A DNA stretch of 64,000 nt. It comes from Schmidtea polychroa. Lineage: Eukaryota. The stretch is taken from positions 46,252,001-46,316,000 of the forward strand of contig CM097888.1 of the NCBI GenBank assembly GCA_044892525.1, read 5' to 3'. Numbering within the stretch: the stretch's first letter is position 1; each line of letters starts with the position of its first letter. The notes under the pieces are model-generated. The model saw only the letters and a list, made by a program, of their open reading frames with translations, did no database searches and had not been told where the DNA came from. Shown piece by piece: positions 1 through 43,464 of this stretch. The translations under genes and the position numbers were made by a program.

Positions 1-9
1 TTCAAATTA

Positions 10-2304
10 ATGTACGGAAGAGAATGTAATATGCCAATGGACCTGGAATACCAACCACCGATATCGCAGTATATGGAGATCGATGATTATGTTACGAAAT
101 TCAAGGAAAGAATGCAAGAAATTTGGGAAACTGCGAAATTAAATATCAAGTTCTACCAGGAAAGTTATAAAGATTTACACGATCGAAAGAAAAACGTGAA
201 GCAACATACGTTTCAAACAGGTGATTGGGTAATGATAGAAACCCCGGAATTAATTCCAGGAACCACAAAAAAGTTACAACGCAACGGAAAAGGACCATAT
301 GAGATCTTATTCGTAGGCGAAACCAATGTAAGAGTGAAATTGGTAAATAATCCATTCACCAGGCCAATATACGTAAACGTGGCACGATGTAAATCAATTC
401 CAAAAACCGCCACCAGTCAACCGGAAGGTCGAACATTAACCACACGTTCGCAAACCTACAAAATGAACATGATGCAACAACTCGCAGAACCGATCACTGG
501 ACGATTGGTCATACAACCATCGGAAGCGGAAAAAATCGTACGAGAGGTAAAGACAAAATTACCCGGATGGGCAAAAGATCGATTAGATTTCGAAATATTA
601 GGAGGATTATTGACGATGATCGAAAACTATGCAAATAGAGAAAGGACACACCCATTATTGCGAGTAGTCAAAAGCCAATGGCCAATATTATTCACAATAA
701 CAGATCATTATGGAGACACACCATTACACAAACTCATGAAAGTAGGTAACAACGAGCAAATACTGGAAACAATAGAAGCATTTCACGACTGCAAGCGATC
801 AACAGAACAAGAAAACAACCAAGGTTACACACCATTAATGATAGCAGCAAACAGAGGCAAAACAAAAGACATCATAACCGCATTACTTGATACTGGATCA
901 AAAATAACTACACAAGATCGCGAGCGGAAAAACGCACTACATCATGCTATCGAAGGGAAAAGTACCGAAGCGTTCACATCGTTGATGGAGTTACTATCAT
1001 ATGAGGACAATCAAGAAGTTGGAAACATGTATGATGGATTATTAACAGCGATCAAAGAGAAACTGACAACAATTACAGGAGTATTAATCACTTGGAGAAA
1101 CCCAATTAGAAATAATTATATGATCAACGTAAACGAAGCATTCACGAAAGGGGAGAACACGCTTATGAGAGAAGCTATGAAAGGACATCATTTATTCGAA
1201 ATCCCGAATCAATTGTTAGAACGAGGGATAACATTCACAAATCATAAGGATGAGCAGTTATTAAAAAAGCGAATAGACGCATTCGAAAAATCAATATTCC
1301 AATTTACTAACCAAGTACGGAATAAATATTGGGAAACGGTAAGTGTGTTATATATGATGGACACAATGAATAACATCCGCGAGAATTACCTGGATATTAT
1401 CCAAATACTTACAGCAGAGGAACGAATCAATAATCCAAACGGAAAGAAAACGAAAATAAGGTATGGGAAATCAAGGGAACCAAAGTCGACAACGAACCAA
1501 ACGGTCACAAACAACGTCATCGAAACCAAATCAATGAGTATAGATCAAGAGGCAATAATACGCAAAGCAAAAGAAGTATTCTTCGAGGAAACGCTAGAGC
1601 TGTCAGACGAAATAATATTGTCAAAAATAATAAAAGCCGTACACACATACGCAAGAGATCAAACCACGGGTTTAGATATCGGGAAAATCAAAACCTTCTT
1701 GCCTCGAGCATTTACGATGGTGACGAAAGATTCAAGAACACCATTACAACAAGCAATACTAGCTGCAAAAGAGAATAGAGCAATAACGATCATAAGAATC
1801 CTTGGGGATATGGGCGAGGAAACCAACACGAAAAATGAACAAGGCGAAACCGCCATGATGTATGCAGCTATAACAAAAATACACCCAAAAACACTCCACA
1901 TCCTACATCAATCAGGATCGAGACTAGACGAAAAATCAAACGAAGGGAACTCCACATTGGACTGGGCAACCATACAGCCAAACTTGGAAATGATCAGATT
2001 TATTTGCAAAAATGCGACAAAAGAAGAAGTTGAAAATATGTGCAAAAACACATCTCAATTTCAATGGAATACGGTACGGAAAAATCTAGAAGCAATGAAA
2101 TTATTATTAACATGGAGGGTACCACAAAATAATAAATATGCGATAAACATAAACGAATTCTACGAAAACGGAGAAAACGCAATGGTAAAGAATACATTAA
2201 CTAAAGGGGGGACACCAAAAATTATTTTAATAGTATTAAACAGAGAAGACCTCAAAATCAGAACGAGTTACAACGAGTTGGAAAACATCGTCGTATTCAA
2301 TTGA
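10..2304 (+). CDS. 3' part of the polyprotein of the preceding copy (integrase C-terminus with GPY/F module, then ankyrin-repeat region); 5'-partial
   Basis: Identical to the last 764 aa of 16009..28485. The frame continues off the left edge. Confidence 0.95.
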   Translation: MYGRECNMPMDLEYQPPISQYMEIDDYVTKFKERMQEIWETAKLNIKFYQESYKDLHDRKKNVKQHTFQTGDWVMIETPELIPGTTKKLQRNGKGPYEILFVGETNVRVKLVNNPFTRPIYVNVARCKSIPKTATSQPEGRTLTTRSQTYKMNMMQQLAEPITGRLVIQPSEAEKIVREVKTKLPGWAKDRLDFEILGGLLTMIENYANRERTHPLLRVVKSQWPILFTITDHYGDTPLHKLMKVGNNEQILETIEAFHDCKRSTEQENNQGYTPLMIAANRGKTKDIITALLDTGSKITTQDRERKNALHHAIEGKSTEAFTSLMELLSYEDNQEVGNMYDGLLTAIKEKLTTITGVLITWRNPIRNNYMINVNEAFTKGENTLMREAMKGHHLFEIPNQLLERGITFTNHKDEQLLKKRIDAFEKSIFQFTNQVRNKYWETVSVLYMMDTMNNIRENYLDIIQILTAEERINNPNGKKTKIRYGKSREPKSTTNQTVTNNVIETKSMSIDQEAIIRKAKEVFFEETLELSDEIILSKIIKAVHTYARDQTTGLDIGKIKTFLPRAFTMVTKDSRTPLQQAILAAKENRAITIIRILGDMGEETNTKNEQGETAMMYAAITKIHPKTLHILHQSGSRLDEKSNEGNSTLDWATIQPNLEMIRFICKNATKEEVENMCKNTSQFQWNTVRKNLEAMKLLLTWRVPQNNKYAININEFYENGENAMVKNTLTKGGTPKIILIVLNREDLKIRTSYNELENIVVFN

Positions 2305-2337
2305 GAGAGTTAGTCAAAGAATGGAATAGAAAGAGAC

Positions 2338-2658
2338 ATGCTGCAACGGGTAGAAGAGTTTGAATTCGAAGCAAAATTAGCAAGAAACAGAGTGCTAACA
2401 GCATATCGCAGATTATTGAACGATATAAATGTCGAGGACGACATTTTAAACGACAGCGGGGAAATAAACACGATGACAATGACGGAAATGGCCGAAAAGA
2501 GGATAAAGGGAAAAGAGAACCGGAAGAGGATAAACCGGAAAACAAGGATTTGGATACGAAAAGAGAGGGAAACAGCCCGGGAACCAAGACCAAAGAGGAG
2601 GAAAAACCGAATAATGGAAAACAGAGGGTATGCCTACCTTTCACTAACAAAGAAATAG
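2338..2658 (+). CDS. Small basic protein (106 aa), unknown function
   Basis: ATG ORF in the same frame as the polyprotein, past two stops (TGA 2302, TAG 2311). The C-terminus is Arg/Lys-rich (PRPKRRKNR). Confidence 0.45.
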   Translation: MLQRVEEFEFEAKLARNRVLTAYRRLLNDINVEDDILNDSGEINTMTMTEMAEKRIKGKENRKRINRKTRIWIRKERETAREPRPKRRKNRIMENRGYAYLSLTKK

Positions 2659-2666
2659 AGACAAAT

Positions 2667-3668
2667 ATGATATTAATGATAATCATGCTCACCATGATAG
2701 AGTTAGTAACAGCTCATGGAGGGACGAGAACGATAAAAGAAACCAAAGAAGCGGAGAATCAAGACAGCAAAGAGGATGAGCTAAAACAAGAAAAGAAAAA
2801 GCAAGCACAAGAGCAGCAGTGGGAATTAAAGGAGGAATGGGACTTAAAGGAAAGGTGCATACTAGGAAGATGCATGTCTAGAGCGTATCAGAAACTAGTA
2901 CTGATAAATGAGGACACAGAACCAATAACAGAAGTAAGAATACAAGAAGCATACCGAAATCGATACGGGAAGAGAATAACGAACGTTAAAGGAAAAGAGG
3001 TACACCTAGGAAAAGGTGGTGAAGTAGTAATAACGCAACTCCAACCTAGAAAAGAGCACAAAGTCTGTATTTCAAGATTAGGACCAGGTGAGAAATGCCA
3101 TCAATACGTGACGCAGCAGCAGCCGCCGAAAGAATACACGGTTTGTATCTGGAGGAACGAATCAAAAAGGGAATGTCGACGATACCCGGGGAAAAGAGGA
3201 AAGAAAAGAAAAAACAACGACGAAAAGGACGAAGGCGGAAAGCACAAGAAAACCGGTGAGGAAGCTCAGGACAACTATGTTTCGGAGGAAGAGATGGAAA
3301 AAATACAAAAGATGGCAAAGGAGGGTATGAACGAGGAAATAGCAAGAATACGAGAGATGATGAAAGGAAATGGCAAAAGAAGGAACGAGAAAAGTACAGA
3401 AGCAATAGTAACATTAACAAACAAGGAGAAACCAGAAAATATAAGCGTGAGGCAGATGATGTGGATTAGTGGGATAATAATAACAGGAGCCTTCCTAATC
3501 ATAACGGGGGGAACAATAAAAATAATTAAAGATAAACGACATCGCGGAGAACTAGAGATGACCCGAATCAGAAATTTCCAACATCGAGTGAAACGACCAA
3601 GTGATACCAAACAAGAACAGTGGGTGGAGGCCTGGAACGCTCAGCGCCCTCCAAACTCACGTATATAG
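2667..3668 (+). CDS. Predicted type I membrane protein (333 aa from ATG 2667; track ORF starts 2550)
   Basis: Signal peptide MILMIIMLTMIELVTA, charged ectodomain with a duplicated VCIxRxxxxxxCxxY motif, TM segment MMWISGIIITGAFLIITGGTIKII, and a basic cytoplasmic tail. Confidence 0.75.
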   Translation: MILMIIMLTMIELVTAHGGTRTIKETKEAENQDSKEDELKQEKKKQAQEQQWELKEEWDLKERCILGRCMSRAYQKLVLINEDTEPITEVRIQEAYRNRYGKRITNVKGKEVHLGKGGEVVITQLQPRKEHKVCISRLGPGEKCHQYVTQQQPPKEYTVCIWRNESKRECRRYPGKRGKKRKNNDEKDEGGKHKKTGEEAQDNYVSEEEMEKIQKMAKEGMNEEIARIREMMKGNGKRRNEKSTEAIVTLTNKEKPENISVRQMMWISGIIITGAFLIITGGTIKIIKDKRHRGELEMTRIRNFQHRVKRPSDTKQEQWVEAWNAQRPPNSRI

Positions 3669-3828
3669 AAAGGAATATGACTGTATATAATTGTAAAAAG
3701 TAAGTATATCTTATGTATATAATAGCACTATATCCTTATATAAGCGCGGTATTAATATTATACAATAACGGGAACCATAAAATAAAATTAACTTTAAATA
3801 AGAGTTGAAAAGTGTATATAAATTAAGA

Positions 3829-4188
3829 ATGGATCAAGGAAATAACGAAATGAACCACAATACAGTAACTGAAGAATTATGGAAGCAACAATGTGCCGTA
3901 TTAGCACAATTAGTGTCCAATTTGCAAGAACAAGGATTGACGATGCACAGAAACCTAATCGAGAGTATGAATAGAGGATTTAGTTATTTGAAGATAATTG
4001 AAGACCAGAGGATGAAAATCGAACAAATGCAAAGAGAGATAGAGAGGATAACCCAATATAGCCGTAGACAGGAAATTGAACTAAACAGAATGATGGAGGA
4101 AGCAGAACAGACAGAAATAGAAGACTGGTCGGACTGGCTAATGAATAGAGAGGAGAGCGGACACGAAGCCGACTCTTCCGAACCCTAA
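3829..4188 (+). CDS. Coiled-coil protein (119 aa from ATG 3829), unknown function
   Basis: Heptad-like Q/E/R-rich helix and acidic C-terminus, flanked by AT-rich spacers. The track start at 3805 is a TTG. Confidence 0.65.
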   Translation: MDQGNNEMNHNTVTEELWKQQCAVLAQLVSNLQEQGLTMHRNLIESMNRGFSYLKIIEDQRMKIEQMQREIERITQYSRRQEIELNRMMEEAEQTEIEDWSDWLMNREESGHEADSSEP

Positions 4189-4273
4189 ACCAAACCTAGC
4201 TTAAAATGTAAATAATTGTAAATAAAATATCGAACCTGTATCGATAAGGACTATATGTACATATAATTATAGA

Positions 4274-5662
4274 ATGGATAAACGACAAAGAGAAGAGTTC
4301 AGAGAGATTGTCGAGCAAATACGAAAATCTACAACGATCAGAATACACAAACATGTTATGTGCGGAATATGTGAAAAGTTGTTAAAGGAACCTCACCAAA
4401 CTCAATGTGGATGCAGAGTATGTAAGGAATGTATCAGTGAAGCAATAAAGAATAGACCACAGCGGTGCCCGGTGTGTAAAGAGACACTAATATCGAGTTT
4501 AGAAGACACTAACGAGGATAAAGCCGCAGTGAAAGATATGTTAAACACCAACCTGGGATGCAAAAATGCCCCATGCGAATGGAAAGGAGTAATCTGGAAG
4601 GTAGTACAACATATGGGAGAATGTATGTACAGAATTGGCCAGTGTGAAAGGTGCCATAAAACCATTCGAGCAAGCGAAGAAAAAGAGCATCAAAGGCAGT
4701 GTGAAGAGAGATTGGAAAGATGTGAACATTGTGGAGAAATAGACACGTGGAAAAATCTCACCCTCAAACATCACAATGTCCAAGAGGAGAAAGTATGTGC
4801 AGAATTCAGTGGGGAATGCCCAAACGGATGTAACCAAGGGGAAATAATGAAAGTGGCACAGCATCTAAGGGAATGTGAAAGGAAAAGAATGACATGTGTA
4901 CTAGGTAAATGGGGTTGTCAGAAACTACTACACCGAGGGGAGTTACCACATCATTTAGTAGAAAATGCTTCAACCCACGCAGAAATGTGGTCGACTGCGT
5001 TACAAGAAAGCGAAGAGAAAATAAAACAAATGGAGATAGAGATAACATCGTTGAAAGTGTTAGTCAAAGAACTACTAGAAGAAAGGGAAGCGTTCGAAGA
5101 AGCCCGAGCAAACATAAAGATGCAAATAAACCGAATAGAAATCAGTAATAATCAGGCCAAGGAGCTACATCAGAAAATACGGGAAATAAATCTAAATGAA
5201 GTAATACCAACAGCACCCTACATATGGAAAATAACGGGAGTAAAAGAAAGAATACGAAAAGCAAAAACCGGAGAAGAGACAAGAATAACAAGTCCTGCAT
5301 TCCATTCTTGGAAAAATGGGTACAAAATGAAAATGAAGATATATCCCAACGGGGACGGAACCGGATTAGATACGCACTTTTCGATTTTCTTTCTGTTATG
5401 TAAAGGGGAATACGACGAAATAATAGAGTGGCCGTTCCAGGCAAAAATCGATATTGCACTAATGAATGACCGAAGCATCCACGAACAAAGCTTCAAGACA
5501 ACTGGAAACCAAATGTGTTACCAGAGACCTACGGAAGAAGAAGGATCAGCAACAGGAGCACCTACGTTCATCCTACAACAAAAAGTAGAAGATATGGCAA
5601 GAAATGACACGGTGTATATCAAGATGACCGTGAGGAAAGAGGAGAAGGGTAGAACGGAGTAA
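4274..5662 (+). CDS. TRAF-family protein (RING, TRAF zinc fingers, coiled coil, MATH/TRAF-C), intronless
   Basis: RING CGICEKLLKEPHQTQCGCRVCKECI...CPVC and repeated Cys/His zinc fingers. MATH motifs YIWKI, SPAFHS..GYKM, IYPNGDGTG..THFSIFFLL.KGEYDEIIEWPF and NDTVYIK. Confidence 0.95.
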   Translation: MDKRQREEFREIVEQIRKSTTIRIHKHVMCGICEKLLKEPHQTQCGCRVCKECISEAIKNRPQRCPVCKETLISSLEDTNEDKAAVKDMLNTNLGCKNAPCEWKGVIWKVVQHMGECMYRIGQCERCHKTIRASEEKEHQRQCEERLERCEHCGEIDTWKNLTLKHHNVQEEKVCAEFSGECPNGCNQGEIMKVAQHLRECERKRMTCVLGKWGCQKLLHRGELPHHLVENASTHAEMWSTALQESEEKIKQMEIEITSLKVLVKELLEEREAFEEARANIKMQINRIEISNNQAKELHQKIREINLNEVIPTAPYIWKITGVKERIRKAKTGEETRITSPAFHSWKNGYKMKMKIYPNGDGTGLDTHFSIFFLLCKGEYDEIIEWPFQAKIDIALMNDRSIHEQSFKTTGNQMCYQRPTEEEGSATGAPTFILQQKVEDMARNDTVYIKMTVRKEEKGRTE

Positions 5663-5855
5663 CCAATCGAATAATGTTGTACATAATAATCTGTATATAT
5701 CGGTGTATATAACCAATAAAATATTATATAATAATAGTATGAAAACCCTAAATACGAAAACCCAAAAATGATGCGAAAATTCCCAAAGAAACAGTAGATA
5801 ATGAATAAATTACTTTTTCATAATAAAAAGATTAATCGATGTCTATGATTTAGAG

Positions 5856-6911
5856 ATGACACAAGAGAAACTAACCGAAACAGCGATAGCCCCAACCAAT
5901 GTCAACAAGACACAAATTCCCCGAGAACATAACAAAAAATGGAACAAAGTAATGTCCCAACTAACTAATCTCACCCGAAATCACATCGAAGAAGCTAGAG
6001 AGGATGAGAATAGTCAATACCAATGGTTAATACACAACTTAAGAGCGGAAGCAGATGCATGCAAAAGAGCATCAAAATGGGCGTCACTAGAAAATACCCG
6101 CCAAGAAGCACACAGCCACTACTTAAAGCAGCTAGTGCAGGAAGCGAGAAAGAGACTTACCGATGAGAACACCAAGCGCGAAGCGGAAAAACAAATAGAA
6201 GAAAGGAAAATGATGCACTTAGTGGCAGAAGCGAGAAAATGGAAAAGACAAAGCAATGAAATGAAAAAAGAGATGAAAGAATTGCCCATGAGACTCGGAT
6301 ATGAGAGCGAACAGGGCAAATGGGAGGAGAACTTAATAATAAAGGAAGAATTGAAACGGTTGAGAAAGGTCGCCGCCCGAAGTCAAACCTGGCAAACAAA
6401 GGCTATGGAATTTGAGCGACATTTGGCAATAAAATGCGACATAAGAGAGCACGAGAATGCCGCAATGGAAGAGATGATAACCCAACAAGCAGGACGGATT
6501 GTGGAATTAGTAAATCAGGTCGAAGAGATGAAAAGAGACCTTAATGGATTACAAGGATCGTTAGAACAAAGAAACATGGTCCTAGCGGGAAAAAACAGAA
6601 AATTAGAAAACGAGAGGAAAATGTATACCGAAAATATCAAAAACTTGGAAATAGAAATTGAAAAATGGAAGGGCGACGAGAAAATCAAGGCCTTAGATAG
6701 ACAAGTAGAGGCGAAAGACGAAGAGACAAGGTATCTCACTTATCTGCTCGACGAAGAGCTGAATAACACTCGAGCTCTAAGAGACGAAGTTAGTGAATTG
6801 AGAGCTCAAATCCCCCAATATTACCTACCCTATGACCCTATTGCGATACAGCTGCATCCAGCGGTCGATAGTGACGAAGGTTATGTGGGACAGGAGGAAA
6901 CCTTCGTATAA
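5856..6911 (+). CDS. Long coiled-coil protein (351 aa), unknown function
   Basis: Uninterrupted ORF with E/K/R/L-rich heptads and periodic Trp. Confidence 0.75.
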   Translation: MTQEKLTETAIAPTNVNKTQIPREHNKKWNKVMSQLTNLTRNHIEEAREDENSQYQWLIHNLRAEADACKRASKWASLENTRQEAHSHYLKQLVQEARKRLTDENTKREAEKQIEERKMMHLVAEARKWKRQSNEMKKEMKELPMRLGYESEQGKWEENLIIKEELKRLRKVAARSQTWQTKAMEFERHLAIKCDIREHENAAMEEMITQQAGRIVELVNQVEEMKRDLNGLQGSLEQRNMVLAGKNRKLENERKMYTENIKNLEIEIEKWKGDEKIKALDRQVEAKDEETRYLTYLLDEELNNTRALRDEVSELRAQIPQYYLPYDPIAIQLHPAVDSDEGYVGQEETFV

Positions 6912-7024
6912 GGGTGAATAAAAAGATAAAAACAAAAATCGGGACGTATATCCCAAACAAAAAAATTAAAGTATTGTAAAAGTATTCAAGGGACTGTAAC
7001 CCGAACTATTAAAATTTTATATAA

Positions 7025-7786
7025 ATGCATAAGTATAAGTCGCACTATAGCGCACCATTAACTGTACATATTACAGATATGAAAATCGAGGAAATAATAG
7101 AAATTACGAGCGACGTGGAAGAGGGAGAGATTGAGGCAGAAACAACAGAAACACAAACGTTAAAGGCCAAGTTACGGGAAGAGAGGGACGAAAACGAGAG
7201 ACTAGTAAACAATTATATAGAAGACCGAAAAATGATTAAAATACTAAAGAAGGAGTGCGAAGCGTTAGGAGAAATAAAGAGAGAAGCTGAAGAGAAGAAT
7301 GAATGGTTGCAAGAACAACGAACACGAGGAAGAAACTGGGAAAAGATTGCAGAGGAACTATGGCAAGAGAGGGCAAGCTTCAAGGCAGAAGAAGTAATCC
7401 AAGATTATTGGAAAACAGAGGCGAAAGAACACCAAATAACTATAAATAAATTAAATCGACAATTGGAGGAAAAACAACGAGAAAGTGAGGAAATGAAGAA
7501 ATGGATTCGCAAGTACCAAGAGATCGAGAGAAAACAACAACAACAACAACAACGAAACCTTTCGCAGGAAAACGAACAAGATTTCCTACAAATCGAACTA
7601 AAAAGGAATCTCGACAAAAAACGGGAAGAAATTAAGAGACTGAAAAAGGAGATAAGGCACATGAAAAGGGAGGCCCGTGAAAAGAACAGACAGTTGGAAA
7701 TGCTGCCCGAGTTAAGACACAGAGTCATTAAAGCGGAATCCACCCTGATGAGAATCGCCGAAAATAACCCAAACCAGAATCATTAA
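7025..7786 (+). CDS. Coiled-coil protein (253 aa; likely start ATG 7079) with short polyQ
   Basis: Uninterrupted E/K/R-rich ORF with a CAA run. ATG 7079 follows TTACAG-AT. Confidence 0.72.
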   Translation: MHKYKSHYSAPLTVHITDMKIEEIIEITSDVEEGEIEAETTETQTLKAKLREERDENERLVNNYIEDRKMIKILKKECEALGEIKREAEEKNEWLQEQRTRGRNWEKIAEELWQERASFKAEEVIQDYWKTEAKEHQITINKLNRQLEEKQRESEEMKKWIRKYQEIERKQQQQQQRNLSQENEQDFLQIELKRNLDKKREEIKRLKKEIRHMKREAREKNRQLEMLPELRHRVIKAESTLMRIAENNPNQNH

Positions 7787-7842
7787 ATTAAGGGTCACTA
7801 AAACCAATTGTAAATAAACCATAATGAATGTATAATAGTATC

Positions 7843-8397
7843 ATGCGAGGCGAGATGATGATAACAATGACGGTATTGATGATTCTGACGGAGAACAAAC
7901 AAGTAAACGCCCAACCGAAAATCGTACGAGATTACCGAAATCAAAATCAAGAACCTAAATGAGAATCCGGCCAATGCACATACCCTATGACAGTAAAAAT
8001 CCATATCATCCAAACCATTCAATCAACCCGATAACACATCAACAACATCCAAACAATGTGTAAAAAGAATCCCATTTGTAAAATGATAAACAAACAAATC
8101 CTCGAACAAATCCAACAATTCGACCAGTTGGAACAACAAATGCAACAAGAGAATTTTGAAAATCTTGTAGAAAAGCCAAAAACACCTCCCGAAATCAATG
8201 ACACCCATTATCTCATATATGTGGTGATCGCAGAAACCCTCCTCCTATGTCTACCAATAATCATGAAGATTTACGAAGTTAGAAATAAATGTAGAATCTC
8301 GACATCAATAAGAGTAACCTCGAACAGAAATCCTCAAGAAATGCCACTGACAAATCCTAACCCAACCCCAGTCCGACCTCGAATCCCGAGTAATTAA
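7843..8397 (+). pseudogene. Type I membrane protein frame interrupted by two in-frame stops; the track ORF 8056..8397 is its TM/tail part
   Basis: ATG 7843 encodes a signal-like MRGEMMITMTVLMILT...VNA|Q. The same frame continues past TGA 7960 and TAA 8032 into the ORF with TM HYLIYVVIAETLLLCLPIIMKIY. Confidence 0.55.
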
Positions 8398-8720
8398 CCA
8401 ATCCAGCCGAATTCTAACAGTCAGACCTATCTCAACATCAATACCCAAACCAACCAACAACCGCCAGCAGAAGCATCAAATGGTTAACAGTTCATAAACT
8501 CCAACTCAAATATTGGTGTTATCATATGTAGAAACTTTTATTGTATATACAAACTATCACCTTAAGTGATACTTGCTTGGTCTTGTTTTGACCTATATCT
8601 TAGAATAAAATTGTTTTTGTTATTGTAGTATAATTATTTCGATATATCCTTTTTATGAATGCCTGAAGTAAGATAACTATGCAATTGCGGGACGCAATTT
8701 TGATGGGTCCCCGAGTGATT

Positions 8721-11700
8721 TGTTGGGCTGAGTCGAAGGGTAGTTGGGAATTAGGGAAACTGAACTAAAATAAAATAAAAAATAAAAACAAATAAATTGA
8801 CAAATAAAATAGAATAAAACATAAGAAAAACAATAATTAGAAAATAAGAATTAAAACAAAAATATAAAGATGAGAAAAATTAAAATAAGACAATAGAATG
8901 ACAGAAAACAACGTAAAATATAGTAAATACTAAGAAAATTAAGGAAAATAAATAAAAACATAATTTTAATAAAGAAAGTAAGAAGAAATAACTCGAAAAC
9001 AAAGAAAATAAATTAAATTAATAAAATTAAGCGGTACTCAATTCTAATTGGTCCGCGCAAACAAAAAATTAATATATAAGCAGGCATTAAAAACATAACA
9101 ATTACTGTTAATCAAACCACCTCAATAGGTAAGTGAAATTTAAATAACTGTGACGGTTAATCAAACCCACCTCAATAGGTAAATCTATTCTACGACGGAA
9201 CAGAACTCCAGCAACTAACGCACGATAACTCACGAGGACAATTCCAAGATTCAAAAGATTTTTACAGAACTAGACGACACTCGAGCATTAACTGATTCGA
9301 CATAGTACCCTTTTCGACTCAGCCCATACTTGTATCAATCATTCGGTAAGGATTTTTGATTGCTTATTTTGGATTTTTAAGTAATGCGTATAGTTCAATA
9401 ATATTCTTAATTTAAAAAATGGTTTTTCTTTTCGTTTGATGTTAGAATGCTTTATTTAAATTAATAATTTGCTTAATAATAAATGATTTGCTCGTTCAGA
9501 ATTATCGATCTTTTATGAATTAATTTTTATGAATTATTATTGGAGACCATTCAATTTGGCGAGAAACGTGGCGTTGAGATACTCTATGTCATGGTGTGAG
9601 GTGCCTTCGGGAGCTCCACCGGTGGACATAGGGTATTTCAATCACGCAGCTAGATTGGGCCGAAATGTGAGGGCTTCTTCACGGGTCCAATCGCTGAAGG
9701 TGCGACTAAAATCTATAGGTAAATGGGAGCCGAAATTGATAGTCATGTAGTGATTGAAAACAAAGATATGTAATAAAGGAATCGGAAAATTTTGATATAT
9801 TCGCGTAGTGATTGAGGGTGTCACACTATCGTCTTCGAATATCGGTTTTGCTAAGCCTAAATTTTCTCTATCATCAATGTAAGTCGTGTGTCAAAAATTG
9901 TTCAAACCTTAGTGAGGCTATCTGTGACATATCTTCGATGTTCATACTTTTCACTCAGAATCTGTTCCGACCAATTTTTAGCCTATGACCTTCGGAACTG
10001 TTATTCCGTTCATCTAAAAGTTCTCTTAAAGACATAGTTGCCAGGAAGTCAAAGTAGATTGCTTCATACAAGTATTAGGTTTACTCGAAATGACTGCTTG
10101 TAAATAAAGAGTAGAATCAGGTAAAATGATTTAATCCAAATAGTTATTCAGAATTGCATAAAACGAGTTCGTTCCAAATAAAAGTTTAAATTACATAAAA
10201 TGATTCGCTATCATAATTTTTTAGAATTTTATATAAAAGGAGTTACATACAATTAATTATCATAATCACATAAACTATTGGCATCAAATAATTTAAAATT
10301 GAAAAATGCAACCAATGCGAGCCACGAAAAATATATTTCTTCAAGTTAGCCGATGATCTTGTTAATTAAATATAAAATTCCAGTATTTCGTGGGGTTGGC
10401 AATCCAGCAGGGATAGGTAGAAATCCTCCAGCACTTAGAGAGTAGATCGATAAACTAGGTTTGAGGAATTAAAGACGAAAAATCCACCCTTGGAGCAAGC
10501 TATATCCAACATTTGCAATACAGATAATTATAATTTTTCCAATAATCCGGTGAGAATTAGTAAATCAGCGCCATATGCAGGAGAATTGTGAGTGATTACG
10601 CGATAGATAAAATTCTGAGAAAATGACATCTTGCAAACATTTAACACCTACAATTGTAGTATAATTAAGTGTGTGACAGCACACCCTGCATGCGTCAGCA
10701 GTTACAGACTCACCTAGTGGCCAAGTACAGTGGGCAAAGTCACACACGCCTCTACTCAGGAAAAATCCGACGAACATACCAGATGGAATTTCTATTAACC
10801 AATTAGACTACCGACAGGTATCATATTTCACCGCTCCGGATTAATAGTCAACCACCGGGCTGACATTTCCTTATCTACCTAGCAGGAATGGTCGGCTACT
10901 AGCTCACATTGATACTGTGCTCAGTTATCATAAAGACAATATTTTTTTTTTGTGCTAAACCCGATCGTAATTATGATTATTCTCTCTTTATTATCGTAGA
11001 ATGAATGGCACGGAAATTATGTCATTTTTGACATAATTATCATTAATATTAATGTCGAATATTATTAATAAATAATATTTAAACCAGGCAAAACACATGT
11101 GAATAATTAGAGAGAATGAATAAATAATTAAAAATTTAAATAGCCTTCCGTTTATCCTGTAGGAATTAATCAACAGACATTATGGACCCCTTTTCCATAG
11201 ATAGTCACTCGACCCCAGTACATGATACCCTCATCAAAATCACTCGTACGGGGGGAGAAGTCAACAAGGTAACTCGATTCTCGGTAAACGTGAAATAATG
11301 ACTTCAAGCGGATTGACTAAATAATCAATTTTCGTCGATCTAGAATTCCTCTCACTAATAGTATTACCTTCCTTTCCGTGTACGGAATCTGGTTTGATCG
11401 ATTTATCTTCTTATAATCAAAGACCCAAAAGGTATGAGAATCCATCGTGCAGTAGTACTTGTCTTGACTGGTAAACTCATATTTTTGTCTATGATCAGTA
11501 AAGTATGAATGGGGTCAGATGGTGACACTCCCGTTGAGTTAATTATTTTCATTTTTCATTTTTTTTCACAGTCACTCAAAAATGTTGCCAAATTCCAAGA
11601 CCGTTCTTCGACCTTGTTTTTCTTGCTCCGACAAGAATTCAATTATCAAAGAGCTCCAGGCCCAAATCGGAAAGCACAAAAGAAGGATAGATGAGTTGGA

Positions 11701-12893
11701 GGGGACATGGTTTAGTCCCACCCAGATGAAGGAGGCTCAGAAGAAGCTGCATCGAAGCGAGCACTGTAGAGACGCGTTGATTTCCGAGAGTCGGGCGCAG
11801 AGGAGCCTGATAAAAGAGCAGTCGGAGGCGCTGCACAAATTATACGTTGCAGCAGCTACAAGGAGGATCGCGAAGATCCCAATTAATGAAGCCAGTAATC
11901 TTTTCCCAGCACATCATGATATCTCTGGCGGATCTTCTTCTCCAGTCGGAAAGTCCTGCCATGGGTGCGTAGAGACCGAGCTCTCACCTAAAGAACCAGA
12001 AATCATCTTTACCGGAACCAGTAAAGCGTTACCTGTGATGGCATCTACCTCTGCAGCACCCCCGACCAATCCAACGGCATCGAAGCCAAAGCGTCGGCAA
12101 TTATCGAGAGCCGAACGCAAAAGGAAACAGCGGGAACGCGTAACCGCCAAACAGAACCAGCAATCGTCGGATCATCTAATCAAAGTCATCAACCCTCCTG
12201 CAGTAATCGATTTAGCATCAGTGATCTCAGGGCGAATCATCTCCGCCGCTGGGGTTTCCTGGGAGGAAAATGCCTCTGAATTTTTCGACTTGGAAGATCT
12301 GTTGGCAGACTCAGAGTGGGAGAAATGAGAACTTCTCCGTAACAAGTCTTCGTTCACTGAAATGACCCGAACATTGTCGGATAACATTTTTACCTTTGTT
12401 TCTTTTCCTGTGGTCGTAACTTTTATTGTATAGGTGTTAGGTATATTTGTGTGATAATCTTAATAATAAACCATTTTGTCTGCATACGTTTCCTTTTGTG
12501 TTCATCCTAGGACAGTTGAGTTGAAATTGGTGAAGGGTATTGAGAGTCATAAAACTAGGAGGAGCATTAGTCAGTTGGCAAACTCAGCTAGAAACATTGC
12601 GATGGGGCGACGGAATGAGTAGACGTAAGTCCTTCTATCGGCAGTCAGGGTTGGGAAGTCGAGGCCCCAGTAAGGAGTAGTCCGGAGGAGCTGGTTCACC
12701 TGCTTACTGGCGTCTCGCCGGCATAGCACAGTTCCAACGTGAAGCAATTCACGGGTGCTATGTTGGAGTGTAAGTTATGTACGGGTCCCGCTCGGCGATG
12801 ACCAAATAAATGATGGGCGAAATCGAGGTGGCATTCATCCTCTAGACTAAAGTTGCACTAGAAAGGGGTCATCCGAGTAGTGTACCCGCAACA
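8721..12893 (+). repeat. Putative long terminal repeat (~4,173 bp), shared between adjacent copies
   Basis: Starts TGTTGGG and ends CCCGCAACA, 7 nt before the PBS. Preceded by the hairpin AATTGCG-GGA-CGCAATT (8683-8699). Contains TATATAAG (~9073), a 26-bp direct repeat (9107/9156) and AATAAA (~12466). No canonical PPT, so the 5' edge is uncertain. Confidence 0.6.
11582..12328 (+). CDS. 248-aa orphan protein inside the putative LTR (N-terminal CxxC, coiled coil, basic segment, acidic C-terminus)
   Basis: Intact ORF preceded by a strong poly(T)-CACAG acceptor-like site. A diverged homolog at 58393-59144 (-) supports coding status. Confidence 0.8.
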   Translation: MLPNSKTVLRPCFSCSDKNSIIKELQAQIGKHKRRIDELEGTWFSPTQMKEAQKKLHRSEHCRDALISESRAQRSLIKEQSEALHKLYVAAATRRIAKIPINEASNLFPAHHDISGGSSSPVGKSCHGCVETELSPKEPEIIFTGTSKALPVMASTSAAPPTNPTASKPKRRQLSRAERKRKQRERVTAKQNQQSSDHLIKVINPPAVIDLASVISGRIISAAGVSWEENASEFFDLEDLLADSEWEK

Positions 12894-12900
12894 TAATTTT

Positions 12901-12918
12901 TGGGGGCTCAGCCGGGAT
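12901..12918 (+). promoter_or_regulatory. Primer-binding site, tRNA-Pro
   Basis: TGGGGGCTCAGCCGGGAT matches 16/18 of the classical tRNA-Pro PBS TGGGGGCTCGTCCGGGAT and follows ...CAACA-TAATTTT. Confidence 0.9.
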
Positions 12919-13216
12919 ATAGATTGAAATTTCCATTGGTCAGTGTAAACTGGATAAGGATGTTATTGAGTGAATTTCTGTCGAATAGAGTGAACTCACC
13001 GGGGTAAGTGATTCCAATGGGTTAGCGAGTGCAAATTGACTAATGCTTATCGAATCTTATTATAAATCACGAATAGAAAATAATAAAATTAAAAATATAA
13101 ATAAAGCAAATTTAATGATGGAGAAATAAGATAAAAGTAAAATAACGATAACGAGTTAGATAAGAGAATGTCCGACGAAACGAAGTCATATACTACTGAA
13201 ACATTTTTTTTTAGAC

Positions 13217-13702
13217 ATGACGGAATTCAATGATCAGATACAACAACTAATCAACTTCATAAACATCGAGAATGACTCCCTTAAAACGCTGACACAAAAG
13301 AGAGAAAGAATTAACATCATACTACTCCAAGCAATCGGGCAAACACCAGCCGTCCCCAACCACATGTTATTAGCCACAGGACTAAGTCACCCAGATGGGA
13401 AGGTAAACCCGGAAACCGTGTACCAATGGTATCAAGAGAGATTGAACCACCCAGCATTAAATCTTGATTATCAACGTATAAAAGATCCCTTAAATACCAT
13501 ATCAGATACAATCGAGCGGAAAATACAAGAAAAACTGACTCTACTACGAACTTGCCTTGCTTGTAAACTTCGTCCTATTCGCGTACTGTTTTTGCCGTGT
13601 GGACACCTCAGTCACTGCGAAGAATGCGGGAACGAGCTAACAAGATGCACGATATGTAAGCACGAGATAAAAGAAACTCATATGGTCTACTATGGTGAAT
13701 GA
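13217..13702 (+). CDS. RING-finger protein (IAP/MDM2-type C-terminal C3HC4 RING), putative E3 ligase, in the 5' leader
   Basis: CLACKLRPIRVLFLPCGHLSHCEECGNELTRCTICKHEI at the extreme C-terminus. No BIR motif seen. Confidence 0.85.
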   Translation: MTEFNDQIQQLINFINIENDSLKTLTQKRERINIILLQAIGQTPAVPNHMLLATGLSHPDGKVNPETVYQWYQERLNHPALNLDYQRIKDPLNTISDTIERKIQEKLTLLRTCLACKLRPIRVLFLPCGHLSHCEECGNELTRCTICKHEIKETHMVYYGE

Positions 13703-14338
13703 ATAGTGAAAGATACAGTAACATCTAGGAACATTGAATTTACACGGCTATTGAATGAGAATAAGTGTAATTGATGTGTGAAAATTGATTAAAGTTTTAA
13801 TTTTTATTTTTTATGGTGAATAAATTTTTGTTATGAACTGAGTAATTATGGCTTTTAATCCTATTTTATAATTGTTTTTTGAATCAAACGAAAAGAAAAC
13901 CGAACTAACGTGGAATTAGTCCCAATATAGGCTGTAAGGGTACAAACCGAGCCACCTTAGGGCGGTACGTTCTATCATACGATAAAACCAATTGGGAGGG
14001 GATAACCGATCAACCTAAGTGAGGAGCGTAGGGCGGGGTACCATCGCAAATGATGAGAAGTTTCTGCGGCATGACTGATCACCATGCCAATGTAGAAATG
14101 GATCATCGCGATCGTCGTGCGTTTTGAGCAAGGGGGGAAAGGGGACACACTCCCGTGCGGTAAAGATTAAGCCAACAAATTAAAAATAGACAGAGAAAAT
14201 GGTAATCTTGAGTAAAAGAAGAAAGAGAGAAGTAGAAGGATGCAGAGTAAAGAATGTTAAAGCCGAGCTGTAAAATAGTCCAGCCGGTCAAGGGAAACGA
14301 AAACTGAGCTGTGAAAAGTCCAGCCAGTTCGGAGATAT

Positions 14339-14637
14339 TAAGATCGAGTTGTTGAATAGTCCAACCGATCAGAAGGAGGAAGATTGAGCTGTTGAATAGT
14401 GCCAGCCAGTCGTAAGATCGAGTTGTTGAATAGTCCAACCGATCAGAAGGAGGAAGATTGAGCTGTTGAATAGTGCCAGCCAGTCGTAAGATCGAGTTGT
14501 TGAATAGTCCAACCGATCAGAAGGAGGAAGATTGAGCTGTTGAATAGTGCCAGCCAGTCGTAAGATCGAGTTGTTGAATAGTCCAACCGATCAGAAGGAA
14601 GAAGATTGAGCTGTTGAATAGTGCCAGCCAGTCGTAA
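14339..14637 (+). repeat. 4 x 74-bp tandem repeat (each unit two ~37-bp sub-repeats) in the leader
   Basis: Units start TAAGATCG at 14339, 14413, 14487 and 14561, with one substitution in unit 4. The core GAG(C/T)TGTTGAATAGT occurs twice per unit, and degenerate monomers lie at ~14265 and ~14305. Confidence 0.95.
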
Positions 14638-16008
14638 AGGCCTAGAAAAGCGAGAGATAGCAGTTAAGCTACAATGAGGTAATATTTAAATTACTAGTGA
14701 AATGGAATATTAAAGCTAGCTAGAACAAATAGAAGGTAATTACGAAAATTTGAGTTTAGAGAGGAAATAAACGAGCTCGTGGAAAAGATAATAAGATTAT
14801 AATGAAAAAGGAAAGGGAAGAAGGAAACGAATTAAAGAGATAATGGAAAATAAAGAATAGGCGAAACGATGATAATGAGTAAAGAGGAAAGTAACCAACT
14901 AATTAAAGGGACCCCAGTGAAGTAGAGAAACTCTACGGAATAATATTTTTCTTTTTTGGGCGAAGCGGGAGAATATATTTTATTGGTTCCAGAGTAGAAC
15001 CGAGTGAGATAATAGTAAATACGAAAAGTAAAACAGCGACAACCGCGCAAAAAGGACTAGGAAAACGAAAGGGGGGTAATAAGCAGTGACCGACAACGAC
15101 CTATTCCTATTATAAGTGATAAAAATAGATAATTATTACGACTCTATAGATAATTGTTACTACCCCATATAGATAATTTAAAATCGACGAAAATTTCGGG
15201 CTGATGGGAGATTATAACCCGCGGAAGTAATTGCATAAAAAATAGGGGAAGCATAAACAGAACCTAAAAGGTGTCTGTGTTTGAATGTTGCAGAAAGAAT
15301 GATGAAGTCGTGTAAGCAGATGCAACACGAGATCATTTTTTCATTTTAGATATCAAACCAATCCAGTCAACCAAGACAATCCAGAACCCGCACAAAAGGA
15401 ATTCGAAGAAATCGACAATCGACCAAGAATAAATCCATTCAGAACCCGCACCGAGAGACACAGCAACCGGAAGACTCCAGAACGGAAGAAGATACAGATA
15501 GCGACATCTCCAACTTCGAACGAATCATCGATATATTCAACCTCATAGTATTAGCAGCCATCTGTCAAGGACTAGTAAATCTCCTCAGAATCACAGTAGC
15601 AGATTCATACAGAATACTTATCGAAGGAAACACAATCAGAACTGAACTCGTCCAATTCAGTAGCCGCTAATTACCAAGAAGCGTAAGAAAGGAATCACGG
15701 ATAAACCCAATCTTAGATCTTCAAGTAAGCCAGGAGACGTATTATTTTCAGGAGACGAATTACAACAACTCAAAAGAGGACGATCTATTAAACATCAAAG
15801 AGGAATATCACAAGGATCAAGAAGAACCAATCAAGTACCTATATTTGACCAAGAAAATCTCGGATACACCCCTAGCCGATCTCGAAGCAGAGAAAGTCTG
15901 TCCGACATCACTAATAGTTTAGCAACGTCAACCGAGGAATTATCAGCCCAAAATTTAGTCACGTCACCGGATAATTTAAAAGAAACCGACGAATCTAGAA
16001 CACCAATC

Positions 16009-16914
16009 ATGACGAATGTCGTAAAAACCGACGAGTATAAAGAAAAGTTCCGAGGAGAACCGTTCAATGGAAATGCAAACAAGCTAGCAACGTTCATAAC
16101 TAATTTTGAAGTTTATATCACTGTGTGTGGATGGACACCCGAAGCAATTAGTAAAAGGATGCCGTTGTTTTTGTGCGATAGCGCATTAGAAGTATATTTA
16201 GAAGCTAAAGAGAGAGATACGAAATTAGAAAAGTGGGAAGATATCAAAACATTCCTGAAGAAAACCTTCGGAGCCAGTAAGCCAATCAACCAGGCGTTGG
16301 GCGAACTAGCAAATAGGAAACAAAGAGCAAATGAATCCATCACGTTATATGCCAGTGAATTGCGGAGATTGGCAAAGAAAGCAATGAATGGGAAATTACC
16401 AGAAGAAAATTTGATCGGTTATTTCATAGAGGGATTACGCCGAGAAGAAGTAAGAGCCTCAGTAGGTTGTCAAATGTGCAAAACATTAGAGGAAGCCATA
16501 GATTGGGCTACAAGATGCGAGCTCCACCTTCCAGCTCAAATGAATATTATGCAAGAGGAGGGAAGGATAATGACAGCAATAGCGAAAGCGGATAACGGAG
16601 ATAACAACAATCAAGAACCGAAAATGAATCAATTTATACCAGGAGCGCACCAAATTTTCAAACCACCACAAGGACGATCAAATGGGAATAATGGTAATCG
16701 TAACAACCCGAATAATGAGAACAATTTTAATAATCGACGAAATATGAACGATAACAAGCAGTGTCGAACATGCGGTAAACCAGGACACTGGGACAGAGAT
16801 TGCTATAGAAATTCAAATTGTAATCGTTGCGGACGGCGTGGACATACCGAAAATGTATGCCAATTGAGAGGTTGTTTTAACTGTGGTCAGCCAGGTCACA
16901 TCTCCAGAGATTGC
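16009..16914 (+). other. Gag domain: Ty3-type capsid plus three CCHC zinc knuckles
   Basis: FNG...FE.Y....W capsid pattern and the Q..NESI..YA.EL motif. CX2CX4HX4C at 16762, 16819 and 16873. Confidence 0.93.
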
Positions 16915-19900
16915 CGAGAAAGGGGCCAACAACAACGACCACCACAGCGAAATAATAATTATATGGCGAATCCGCAACGACAAAGTAACCCTAGCGAAGG
17001 AAAACAAATGAACGTTATGCAGGAAATCTCGCAGATGAAACAGATGATGCAACAAATGATGAGACCGAGACCGGAATCAGCACCACAACAAACCCAGAAT
17101 ATACGTATGATGAGGAGTACCGAAAATCTCAACAATTATGAAGTGCATCAACATGTACAAGAATGGCAAAGACTACAGGCCGAGGAAGAGAGGATAAAAC
17201 AAGAACGCAACCAACAACGACAAGAACAACCATTGCGAATTAATATGATGAAGTTAGTAAAAGACATGAAAAGCCAGTATTGCTACAATTACGGGAAAAA
17301 CCCAAGGGTAGTACCCATGACTGAACCAGAAAAGGTAACAGAAACAACAACGGAAATGAAAACAGAGAATTCAACCACGATTTTAAAAGGAAACCCGAGA
17401 ATTCAGAAAATATTCTGGAAAAAGATAAAAGATAAAATCGAAAAAGAACATAATAAAGCGAAAGCCGAGACAGAAGATGAAAATAACAAGAGCAAGGAAC
17501 AAACCAGTCAACTAAACCACCAAATGCTACAAGAATTAGAATCAGAAGAAACAACGATATTCGAAAGAAAGAAACTAAAGAGAGTACCAAGGATGAGAAA
17601 TTTGCAAATCAATATGATGAAAAGGACAAAAGATGTAGCATCGTCAGACGAAGAAGAAGACTATGTAAGTAGTTTGGGTGGAGAAATACTACAGCTAAAT
17701 GAAATAAGCGAACCTCCAAAAGGGGAAATCAAAGAGGAAGAAAGCGAAAGCGAGATAACAAGTGGAAGTGAAGACGAGGATATCGAAATAAAGTTGAGAA
17801 AAGCAAGGGAGGAAGCGATAAAACAGGTAGCCGAAATACTCCCGGCGGTAGTGAGAAACCAAGAGTTCATCGACGTAATACCATTCAGGCGATTCGTGCA
17901 AAAAGTGATGAAATTGGAAAGAAACGAGAAAGATTTAATACCAAACGAGGAAAAATCAATTATAAAAAAGTATATGGAAAAAATGAAGCAGGCCGATACC
18001 ACGCGGTATGTAATAAAAATCGGAACGAGCAGAGGACTTGAAAGAATGTGGATCAAAAGTACAGTCACCGACGAACTTTTCGATTGGATACGAGAACATT
18101 TGGGAAATTCGAGAAAGAAAGAATATCTGTATCAATACCAAGGAGAACAGATCAAACCAGATATGCACTTAGTAGATGCACTAATATGGCCAGGAGAAAC
18201 GCAAATACTGAAGTTGCATAAAGAAAAACAACCAGCCAACCTTTACGATTGGGCTAAAGATGCCAAGGCAGAATATGATTTTAATATCAAATTGAAATTA
18301 GAACAAATAAAACAATGTACTCTGAGACGAAACCTGGATAAGCTGATCAAACAAATTCAAGAACAAGTAGAAGACAACTGGGAATTACTCATCACCAGAC
18401 GAGCCCCAGCCATGTACGAACTAATGAGCCGATTGCGAGATACAGAAATGCTCCGGATGAGTGATTGGAGAACCATAAATTTGATCCACAAATATGGAAG
18501 GTTAAAAGAAACCCAGCCACAGAGGTTGGAAATAACCATATGGTTACCGAACGAAGAAAAACGACGAATAAAAATGAGCAATCGGAGTACAGTGGATGAC
18601 TTGGTATCAAAGATAAACCAAGAGATAACGGAAAAGGTACGTAGCGAAAGTAGTGATGGTATGGTGGATGATGTAGTCATGATGTACGATAAAATAATAT
18701 TACGAGCAGAAGACGACACCTCGTTAAGCGAATTGGGTATGTGGAACAATCATCAGATCATCAGGATAGTACCAATGGATGAATTTCGAACAAGAGATGT
18801 AATCTATCAAAAAGAAATACGAGACCGGATGAAAACGTTATATCAAAAATCTACAGAAATAATTGAAATCCACCAACAATGGTTAAAAGAAAAAGAACTA
18901 CAAGGAAAAATCACGAAATTAAGCACCAGATCCTGCAGACGAACCCCATGGGAAAGAGTGTGGAATGCAGAAAATAAGGAATGGGAAATCCGGAAAGGAA
19001 TCTTCGTAGAAACAGACATTGGTGAGACAGAAAGTGAATCGGAGGAAGAAGAAGAGGAACCTCCAGAATATGAAGAGGAAGCAAGGGGACAGACATCAGA
19101 TGACGAAAGCGAGACGGATGTCACATCAGAAAGCGAAAATGAAGCGAGACATATTCATGCAATGAGGAAAAAGGAACGTGAATATGCTGATATGGACGGC
19201 GAGGAAGCGACGGAAGCAAGAGAACGAGAAGAGAAAGAAAGATATAAACAATTAGGCGATATCTTAGCAATGGGAGCGAAAAATCAAAAACGCCAAGTAG
19301 TAGCGTTGGCTAACATCATCTTAAAGACATCAGAGAACATCCACAATCTGAGAGGAATGGCAAAGGCAATAGAGGAATACCGGCAATATAATGAATGGTA
19401 TCCAGAACAGCTAGAACAAATTATTCGAAAATGGAGAAATCAGGAATGGGCACAAGACACTCAGGAGAGGAATCACATCCGAATCAAGTATCCGGACAAG
19501 AGCATCGAGGAACTAGAGGTGCATCCAACAACAAAGATTAGAGAATTAAAAAAGAAATTAGCATATGAAACTCCATTCCATCTGCAACTGTTCGGAAAAT
19601 CACTAGACGATAATGCAGACGTCGGAATAACACCCATGAGATTGGAAGAGACAAATGTGTTAACAATGGCAGAAACGTTGGGAAAGCCGTTAAAAAGGAA
19701 AAGTAAAATTACTAAACCAACAAAAAGCAGTTTGAGTACTCCAAGTCCGAACAAAGCACCAAGTAAATCTAATGAAACTGAAGAAGTTGAAGAGATAATC
19801 CTGGAAGATAGTGACGATGAACCAGGAGAAAGATCACCGCTATTAGTAAGATGGCCGACAGGAGCCGAAATGTGGACTAATAACCAGCCATCAACGAGTT

Positions 19901-42189: not shown

Positions 42190-43464
42190 ATGACGAATGT
42201 CGTAAAAACCGACGAGTATAAAGAAAAGTTCCGAGGAGAACCGTTCAATGGAAATGCAAACAAGCTAGCAACGTTCATAACTAATTTTGAAGTTTATATC
42301 ACTGTGTGTGGATGGACACCCGAAGCAATTAGTAAAAGGATGCCGTTGTTTTTGTGCGATAGCGCATTAGAAGTATATTTAGAAGCTAAAGAGAGAGATA
42401 CGAAATTAGAAAAGTGGGAAGATATCAAAACATTCCTGAAGAAAACCTTCGGAGCCAGTAAGCCAATCAACCAGGCGTTGGGCGAACTAGCAAATAGGAA
42501 ACAAAGAGCAAATGAATCCATCACGTTATATGCCAGTGAATTGCGGAGATTGGCAAAGAAAGCAATGAATGGGAAATTACCAGAAGAAAATTTGATCGGT
42601 TATTTCATAGAGGGATTACGCCGAGAAGAAGTAAGAGCCTCAGTAGGTTGTCAAATGTGCAAAACATTAGAGGAAGCCATAGATTGGGCTACAAGATGCG
42701 AGCTCCACCTTCCAGCTCAAATGAATATTATGCAAGAGGAGGGAAGGATAATGACAGCAATAGCGAAAGCGGATAACGGAGATAACAACAATCAAGAACC
42801 GAAAATGAATCAATTTATACCAGGAGCGCACCAAATTTTCAAACCACCACAAGGACGATCAAATGGGAATAATGGTAATCGTAACAACCCGAATAATGAG
42901 AACAATTTTAATAATCGACGAAATATGAACGATAACAAGCAGTGTCGAACATGCGGTAAACCAGGACACTGGGACAGAGATTGCTATAGAAATTCAAATT
43001 GTAATCGTTGCGGACGGCGTGGACATACCGAAAATGTATGCCAATTGAGAGGTTGTTTTAACTGTGGTCAGCCAGGTCACATCTCCAGAGATTGCCGAGA
43101 AAGGGGCCAACAACAACGACCACCACAGCGAAATAATAATTATATGGCGAATCCGCAACGACAAAGTAACCCTAGCGAAGGAAAACAAATGAACGTTATG
43201 CAGGAAATCTCGCAGATGAAACAGATGATGCAACAAATGATGAGACCGAGACCGGAATCAGCACCACAACAAACCCAGAATATACGTATGATGAGGAGTA
43301 CCGAAAATCTCAACAATTACCAAACCTTTTCTTTAGAACACTTATCCATCCAGAATTCGACGAACGTATTGGTAAGATTAACTTTAAGGACATTTAACCG
43401 ACTACATAGATTGTGTATTGTGATTAATTTGAGTCTGGAGCTCTACTCCATTTATCATCCTTAG
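42190..43464 (+). pseudogene. Truncated polyprotein: intact Gag (CA plus 3 CCHC) fused to 47 unrelated residues
   Basis: Identical to the 16009 ORF up to 43319, then reads into flanking DNA to a stop at 43464. Confidence 0.9.

Follow-up and report, generated by a model that had tools for sequence, protein, structure and literature searches.

A 64,000-nucleotide stretch of Schmidtea polychroa DNA (the window) contains, at positions 4274-5662, an open reading frame (ORF) for a complete TRAF protein. The gene comes after the pol frame and before the 3′ LTR in a roughly 30-kb Burro-like Ty3/gypsy element. The ORF is a real, functional-looking and anciently captured cargo of a giant retroelement of a known kind. 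With moderate confidence, we favour the reading that this complete TRAF in the element's 3′ accessory block was likely captured once, has been kept by selection, and is predicted to be an active adaptor and ubiquitin ligase that likely serves host-cell survival.

The ORF encodes a whole TRAF

In the ORF reading of the window, the frame gives 462 aa uninterrupted by stops, laid out as follows.

4274-5662 (+): full-length TRAF ORF, 462 aa (Pfam, structure matches, model)
4361-4477 (+): RING, with eight Cys ligands C30, C33, C45, C47, C50, C53, C65 and C68
4559-4978 (+): five TRAF-type zinc fingers at about residues 96-235; finger 3 has a triclad-type insert
4967-5191 (+): predicted coiled coil, helix 232-306 (AlphaFold2 model)
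5219-5632 (+): MATH/TRAF-C domain (Pfam, PDB and fold matches)

Pfam recognizes the RING at residues 29-68 (PF00097, 22.2 bits versus a cut-off of 21) and MATH at residues 316-453 (PF22486, 91.1; PF21355, 92.7). Its zf-TRAF model does not reach E 0.05 on the window TRAF, while the homolog in a second element family (family B, below) does match; the five zinc fingers are deduced from Cys/His columns kept across a 36-row alignment. Comparison with the RING-zinc-finger structures of TRAF5 and TRAF6 gives E values of 9e-15 and 8e-14, and the nearest solved structures in the PDB are the TRAF domains of TRAF3, TRAF1 and TRAF2 (E about 1e-27, best 5e-28). The AlphaFold2 model (mean pLDDT 89.2, pTM 0.45) contains a single long helix at 232-306 (75 residues) and a TRAF-C fold, for which Foldseek returns the TRAF3/1/2 TRAF domains as top folds (E 4e-18). 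The helix before MATH is a predicted coiled coil (TRAF-N). Pfam, the alignment, the structure matches and the model confirm that the ORF is a whole TRAF, with RING, five zinc fingers, coiled coil and MATH and no introns, as an earlier note on this DNA had described it.

The RING motif CGCRVC (residues 45-50) places Cys47 at the usual His ligand, so that eight zinc ligands are still present. All RING ligands are retained, together with Ile32 and Pro66. The MATH core residues Y350, Y357, G360, D361, G428, P430 and F432 are the same as in host TRAFs; the MATH groove is unlike that of four compared host TRAFs at several positions, e.g. Q413, A429 and L374.

A word-free search found 6070 protein homologues at E<=0.001, of which the 150 that were listed are 25-40% identical; the 0 matches among 3643 candidates in the first homologue search hence reflect a limit of that method. 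A metagenome scan with the element-TRAF alignment gave 209 pattern matches, 0 of them confirmed. Vertebrate TRAF2/3/5, the top sequence and fold matches, share the RING, five fingers, coiled coil and TRAF-C. Unlike them, the window TRAF has no His at ligand 4 and no receptor-groove serine run, and triclad host TRAFs are the same in this respect.

Architecture of the element

The TRAF gene is embedded in the following features of the window.

1-3668 (+): tail of the preceding unit's polyprotein; a stop at 2304 ends the long frame, and ORFs 2338-2658 and 2667-3668 hold the remainder
3829-4188 (+): accessory ORF, 119 aa, immediately before the TRAF; families B and C have homologs in this position
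5856-6911 and 7025-7786 (+): two accessory ORFs behind the TRAF, with no Pfam match above threshold; both have positional homologs in families B and C
8721-12893 (+): LTR, 4,173 bp, TG...CA ends, common to two tandem units
12901-12918 (+): primer-binding site, with a match to the 3′ end of tRNA-Pro(TGG) genes in this genome
13217-13702 (+): leader accessory ORF, 161 aa, with a C-terminal RING (PF13920, E 4e-11)
16009-28485 (+): polyprotein, 4158 aa, gag-zinc knuckles-fusion glycoprotein-protease-RT-RNase H-integrase-ankyrin
30455-31843 (+): identical second TRAF copy, in the next tandem unit
34902-39074 (+): following LTR, identical to 8721-12893
42190-43319 (+): start of the third unit's gag, ending abruptly at 43319

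From LTR to LTR the element measures 30.2-30.5 kb. Within the polyprotein, Pfam places the protease (RVP, 2397-2488), RT (RVT_1, 2710-2868), RNase H (2931-3060) and integrase (rve, 3243-3340) in that order, followed by ankyrin (Ank_2, 3642-3721). The fusion glycoprotein lies in frame between gag and pol (PF24664, E 8e-70, top stretch 1868-2207), and Pfam finds no MATH inside the 4158 aa. Of the 106 RT matches that were scored, about half have a longer polyprotein frame than the window's copies; in one other copy the frame reaches 4617 aa. The RING of the leader ORF resembles that of a BIR-RING protein of family B.

The primer-binding site was assigned with a pattern taken from the window's own site, which found the tRNA-Pro arrays; a pattern based on other organisms gave 0 matches. 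The tRNA-Pro(TGG) genes form a long tandem array with 475-bp spacing (G000:C1 from 130.90 Mb; L134, L135), and the pattern occurs 1095 times per strand. The LTR contains an ORF of 248 aa (11582-12328) that is kept in family C (40% identical) and has no Pfam match, and the leader holds 74-bp tandem repeats (14265-14711) whose number varies among copies. Elsewhere in the window lie broken hAT transposase pieces with a BED finger and a dimerisation domain (48308-50304, minus strand) and, beside an N stretch, a MITE-like inverted repeat with 90-nt arms 703 nt apart (51076-51958).

The units are arranged head to tail with a period of 26,181, positions 1-17138 being repeated with 0 mismatches. With 30 kb upstream included, the array reads LTR-internal-LTR-internal-LTR plus a third gag broken off at 43319; it spans window positions 1-43319 and 17 kb upstream, with LTRs common to adjoining units. 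The units differ from each other by 1 mismatch over 34 kb, and the first LTR is without a 50-bp duplication present in the other two. Paired TRAF matches at unit spacing also occur elsewhere, in all three families described below, and such tandem pairs could be real arrays or, partly, assembly duplication. That the gene is an assembly-only feature is ruled out by its presence in dispersed copies with target-site duplications: 4-bp duplications flank two other copies of the window's family; none was seen in the window array, whose own 3′ end is cut. LTR pairs are 99.7-99.9% identical in all three other copies with two LTRs.

We term the element Burro-like by the published description of such elements. 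As described in PMC6431247, the Burro/GYPSM1 elements of dugesiid planarians are likewise about 30 kb with LTRs, have an ORF1 of over 4,000 aa with a gag-env-PR-RT-RH-IN-ankyrin frame and a fusion glycoprotein between gag and pol, and possess leader tandem repeats, accessory ORFs and MATH_TRAF_C cargo. Their reported domains comprise MATH_TRAF_C, BIR, ankyrin, a BCL2-like domain and an in-frame env. For a Dugesia tigrina element the same source places MATH_TRAF_C in an accessory ORF; as in the window element, MATH is absent from its ORF1.

Three element families carry the gene at one position

In the genome, 92 matches to the window TRAF were scored out of 1927 candidates, top-scoring candidates being favoured; all 92 are 94-100% identical to it and 91 are free of stops. 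Searches with PF21355 and with a Dendrocoelum TRAF yielded two further families. Compared with the window's family (A), family C is 70% identical in TRAF and 98% in RT-RNase H, and family B is 30% identical in TRAF and 89% in RT. The TRAF occupies the same element position in all three, with homologous ORFs before and after it. Both element flanks are present at 18/18 other family-A loci and 24/26 family-C loci, versus 0/8 host loci, which bears out the earlier proposal of a host-type TRAF inside an LTR retroelement.

Cargo differs among the families. Family B has MATH within a 4688-aa polyprotein in addition to the whole TRAF gene, and a BIR-RING (IAP-like) gene directly behind the TRAF (L070 5555-6733; L076). 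Pfam found no BIR in ten family-A ORFs scanned, and no BCL2-like domain was detected in the family-A polyprotein by Pfam/phmmer, which is weaker than the HHpred used in PMC6431247. Relative to Burro, family A thus shows no BIR among the ORFs scanned and no polyprotein MATH, while family B has both polyprotein MATH and the whole gene. The review PMC6431247 names only a MATH_TRAF_C domain for Burro and places the accessory ORF upstream; in contrast, the window element and its relatives in all three families carry a whole RING-finger-coiled-coil-MATH gene downstream of pol. In one family-C copy (L124-L126, G000:C1 near 210.02 Mb; L094), the polyprotein tail continues in frame into the TRAF. By its sequence, such a fusion can be a natural route from accessory gene to polyprotein domain.

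A probable single ancient capture from the triclad TRAF family

A careful tree of 26 rows unites the element TRAFs in one clade (98/94), nested in a triclad group (99/100); a phylogeny with host TRAFs had been asked for in the earlier note. A mixture-model quick tree gives the same groups (SH-aLRT 91 for elements, 100 for triclads), and a 55-row quick tree gives 94 for the element clade and a weak 79 for the triclad group. Near-duplicates, long branches and surplus outgroups, 21 and 29 of the 55 rows, were left out of the mixture and careful trees, respectively. Element rows have an unusual residue make-up that can draw them together in a tree. Among groups chosen for AU testing after earlier trees had been seen, elements with non-triclad TRAF2/3-like rows are rejected (p 0.002), as is separate A/C placement with either host subclade (p 0.033, 0.001). 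Independent of any tree, the shared flanking ORFs argue for one capture. We conclude that the TRAF was likely captured once, long ago, from the triclad host's own TRAF family. The situation that the earlier note had set against its proposal, namely a near-identical intronless host TRAF with the copy absent from other insertions, is not what was found: host TRAFs reach at most 31% identity over full length, and the insertions are many.

Within the triclad group, host locus L078 pairs with Dugesia TRAF-2A as its sister (100/99). In a MATH-only tree, the family-B polyprotein MATH groups with the element TRAFs (94/95, together with one truncated library row), which suggests a TRAF duplicate relocated into the polyprotein. 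The library protein P0093, a CGC-type TRAF, shows a weak grouping with the element TRAFs; it is only 44% filled in the MATH-only tree, where its placement is unreliable, and it may come from an element in another flatworm.

The CGC RING and the lack of introns are host traits

Triclad host TRAFs (Dugesia japonica TRAF-2A, Dendrocoelum lacteum TRAF-2/-4/-5 and Smed-TRAF-2A/B) resemble the window TRAF in domain order, all-Cys RING, finger 3 insert and a Cys-Tyr before the QRP-type MATH motif, and several triclad host genes likewise have coding regions without introns. The window TRAF differs from them in sitting in a mobile element, in its pol-like codons and in its high copy number. The host TRAFs of this genome lie at AT-rich loci without element flanks and are 27-31% identical to the window TRAF over full length; for the triclad TRAFs named above the figure is 27-32%.

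The earlier note had read intron absence as a sign of mRNA capture. However, RING and MATH lie in one frame in 10/10 RING-holding host TRAF frames outside the C2 cluster; seven of these open at an in-frame Met and the other three probably have a short first exon. In the C2 cluster, RING and MATH are in separate frames. This large TRAF-like host cluster (G000:C2, about 105-124 Mb and 1-5 Mb; most of L046-L069) forms one clade in the MATH tree for the rows tested (100/97).

CGCRVC had likewise been taken as a deviation from cellular TRAFs, and an altered E3 had been proposed. Yet Cys occupies the fourth RING ligand in 27/27 host RING frames found and in 3/3 named Dendrocoelum TRAFs. Over 151 library proteins, the RING pattern shows His in 79 and Cys in 18, with 54 unmatched; the Cys set includes the three named Dendrocoelum TRAFs and two crinoid TRAFs. 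We therefore read both the CGC motif and the absence of introns as inherited host traits. Because they are, they demonstrate neither an mRNA route nor an altered E3. The ideas that CGC is an element-specific RING change and that the lack of introns proves mRNA capture are rejected. RNA is the usual capture route for LTR elements.

Codon use and purifying selection

The window TRAF is close to pol in composition (A 0.41, T 0.18, A3 0.45, T3 0.16, versus A 0.41, T 0.20, A3 0.45, T3 0.18 for pol), while host TRAFs have T 0.27-0.34 and T3 0.30-0.44. In a codon log-likelihood test, 4/4 element sequences fall on the pol side and 12/12 host TRAF frames on the host side.

For family A against family C, dN/dS is 0.084 (RING 0.14, coiled coil 0.07, MATH 0.11). 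These ratios are rough, because dS values between families (1.5-3.2) are close to saturation or already there; for the fingers and N-terminus dS is undefined. Within family A, 13 of 14 window-versus-copy pairs give 0.07-0.15 and the remaining pair 0.51 on 9 differences, with 0.20 for one divergent copy. Family C gives 0.10-0.15 in 17/17 pairs and family B 0.20 in its one pair; pairs share ancestry and so are not independent. These ratios strongly indicate that the element TRAF is kept under purifying selection, at about 0.07-0.2, RING included. Given the pol-like codons, the presence in three families and the purifying selection, the A-rich gag-pol-like codon style pointed out earlier, and the long residence deduced from it, both hold.

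Putative transcript signals

Two sites that bracket the TRAF resemble transcript signals.

4261-4272 (+): splice-acceptor-like site (inferred), an AT-rich stretch whose final AG lies one base upstream of the ATG
5715-5720 (+): AATAAA, accompanied by TGTA motifs downstream of the stop and resembling a poly(A) signal (inferred)

Under a strict criterion that was set after the sites had been seen, the acceptor-like pattern occurs at 8/13 accessory starts versus 26/2137 other ATGs. In the presumed-RNA runs X1 and X6, assembled contigs cover all or part of the TRAF ORF at about 7-13% difference. One X1 contig begins at 4261 and one ends at 5721, and X6 contigs have A-tails at A-rich spots; a further run, X7, gave no matching contig. 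No splice joint to the acceptor is among the joints listed for these assembled contigs, and no RNA sequencing run containing the TRAF is among the matches listed. We suppose that a short, separate mRNA would carry the TRAF, with splicing or trans-splicing at the AG that precedes the ATG and termination at the AATAAA.

Function: a proposed active survival adaptor and its alternatives

By analogy with TRAF biology, the element TRAF would trimerise through its coiled coil and MATH and bind TRAF-motif partners, while its RING and fingers would carry out ubiquitination. From the host gene family and the neighbouring cargo, the output would be survival signalling, buying the element time to replicate. 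An active adaptor and ligase is favoured over a dead decoy because neither the RING ligands nor the MATH core has been lost. Survival is favoured as the output because L078 is sister to Dugesia TRAF-2A, RNAi of Smed-TRAF-2A/B is lethal with more cell death (PMC7586133), and the family-B TRAF adjoins an IAP-like gene. As counterpoints, family A lacks a BIR gene next to the TRAF, and the one characterised viral TRAF that we found, ORF111L of the megalocytivirus ISKNV, is pro-apoptotic, being reported to bind TRADD and promote caspase-8 apoptosis (PMC3352826).

The strongest alternative, which we consider possible but rather doubtful, is a dominant-negative decoy that co-assembles with host TRAFs or occupies upstream partners, blunting nucleic-acid sensing of the TBK1 type with no signalling of its own. 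Host TRAF2/3/5 homologs are reported to be TBK1-induced, and TBK1 to restrain foreign nucleic-acid expression in planarians (PMC13563047); the departures in the MATH groove would also suit a decoy. Selection across all domains fits a decoy that has to co-assemble with host TRAFs as well as it fits an active ligase. However, the RING and fingers are as constrained as MATH, with all zinc ligands retained, the Cys-for-His swap is the host's own state, and a pure decoy could drop its RING, as in the MATH-only copy of the family-B polyprotein. The decoy role suggested in the earlier note is thus a possible one, but the constraint on the RING does not favour it.

The active survival adaptor also has to be weighed against a retargeted ligase, in which a working RING and an altered MATH groove would bind and destroy a host restriction factor, e.g. 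a silencing or antiviral protein. The RING is intact and under selection, the branch from all host TRAFs is deep (at most 31% identity), and MATH is strongly diverged between families A and B. Between A and C, however, MATH shows neither relaxed nor positive selection (0.11), and we regard this alternative as unlikely.

Very unlikely, in our judgement, is the reverse direction, i.e. that the host's intron-poor CGC-type TRAFs descend from an ancestral element's TRAF by domestication. The host genes are indeed intron-poor, and elements as sister to all host CGC TRAFs are not rejected in AU tests on groups likewise chosen after the earlier trees (p 0.32). Against it, host TRAFs nested in today's element families are rejected (p 0.005, 0.004), long exons also occur at host TRAF loci that do not belong to the CGC group (L086 and L087; 383 and 304 codons), and none of the eight host loci has element flanks. 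A functionless captured host fragment carried as a neutral passenger is scarcely credible: stops in the TRAF of 3/26 family-C loci and the window's own interrupted polyprotein frame are consistent with it, but dN/dS far below 1 within and between families refutes it at family level, and the TRAF is kept across three families despite only 30% identity.

Significance

Parts of this picture are already known, and the novelty implied by the earlier note does not stand: PMC6431247 describes MATH/TRAF-C cargo in Burro/GYPSM1, and PMC3352826 a RING-bearing TRAF in fish iridoviruses. Like the window TRAF, ISKNV ORF111L is a host-derived RING, coiled-coil and MATH TRAF in a virus-like parasite; unlike it, ORF111L is a 296-aa protein of a DNA virus, closest to fish TRAFs and separately captured. 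No description of a full-length element TRAF was found in the literature searched, and Grohme 2018 and Jurka 2007 (supplements/Repbase notes) may hold one; the available text of PMC11410931 does not mention TRAF. New here are the full-length gene, its one origin over three families, a RING under selection, and the recognition of CGC and intron absence as host traits. The domain list of a known giant retroelement thereby becomes a testable gene, a whole host signalling ligase under selection, which bears on the proposal in PMC6431247 that Burro interferes with apoptosis and ubiquitination.

More tentatively, and as a picture that we think possible without leaning towards it, Burro-like elements would be complex and retrovirus-like, expressing their accessory block as separate spliced polyadenylated mRNAs; a working TRAF ligase held since early triclads would form, with IAP-type RINGs, a mobile anti-death/anti-immunity module, elements would account for part of the TRAF expansion, and the host CGC-TRAFs as a whole may be the sister group of the element lineage. 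BURRO1 is reported to be expressed in somatic tissue after PIWI loss (PMC8532177). Planarian TRAF expansion has been put at 121 MATH transcripts (PMC6109357) and at up to 282 contigs (PMC7586133), and the available portions of both sources draw no link between it and elements. Planarian 'TRAF' counts and expression calls such as these may include element-borne copies.
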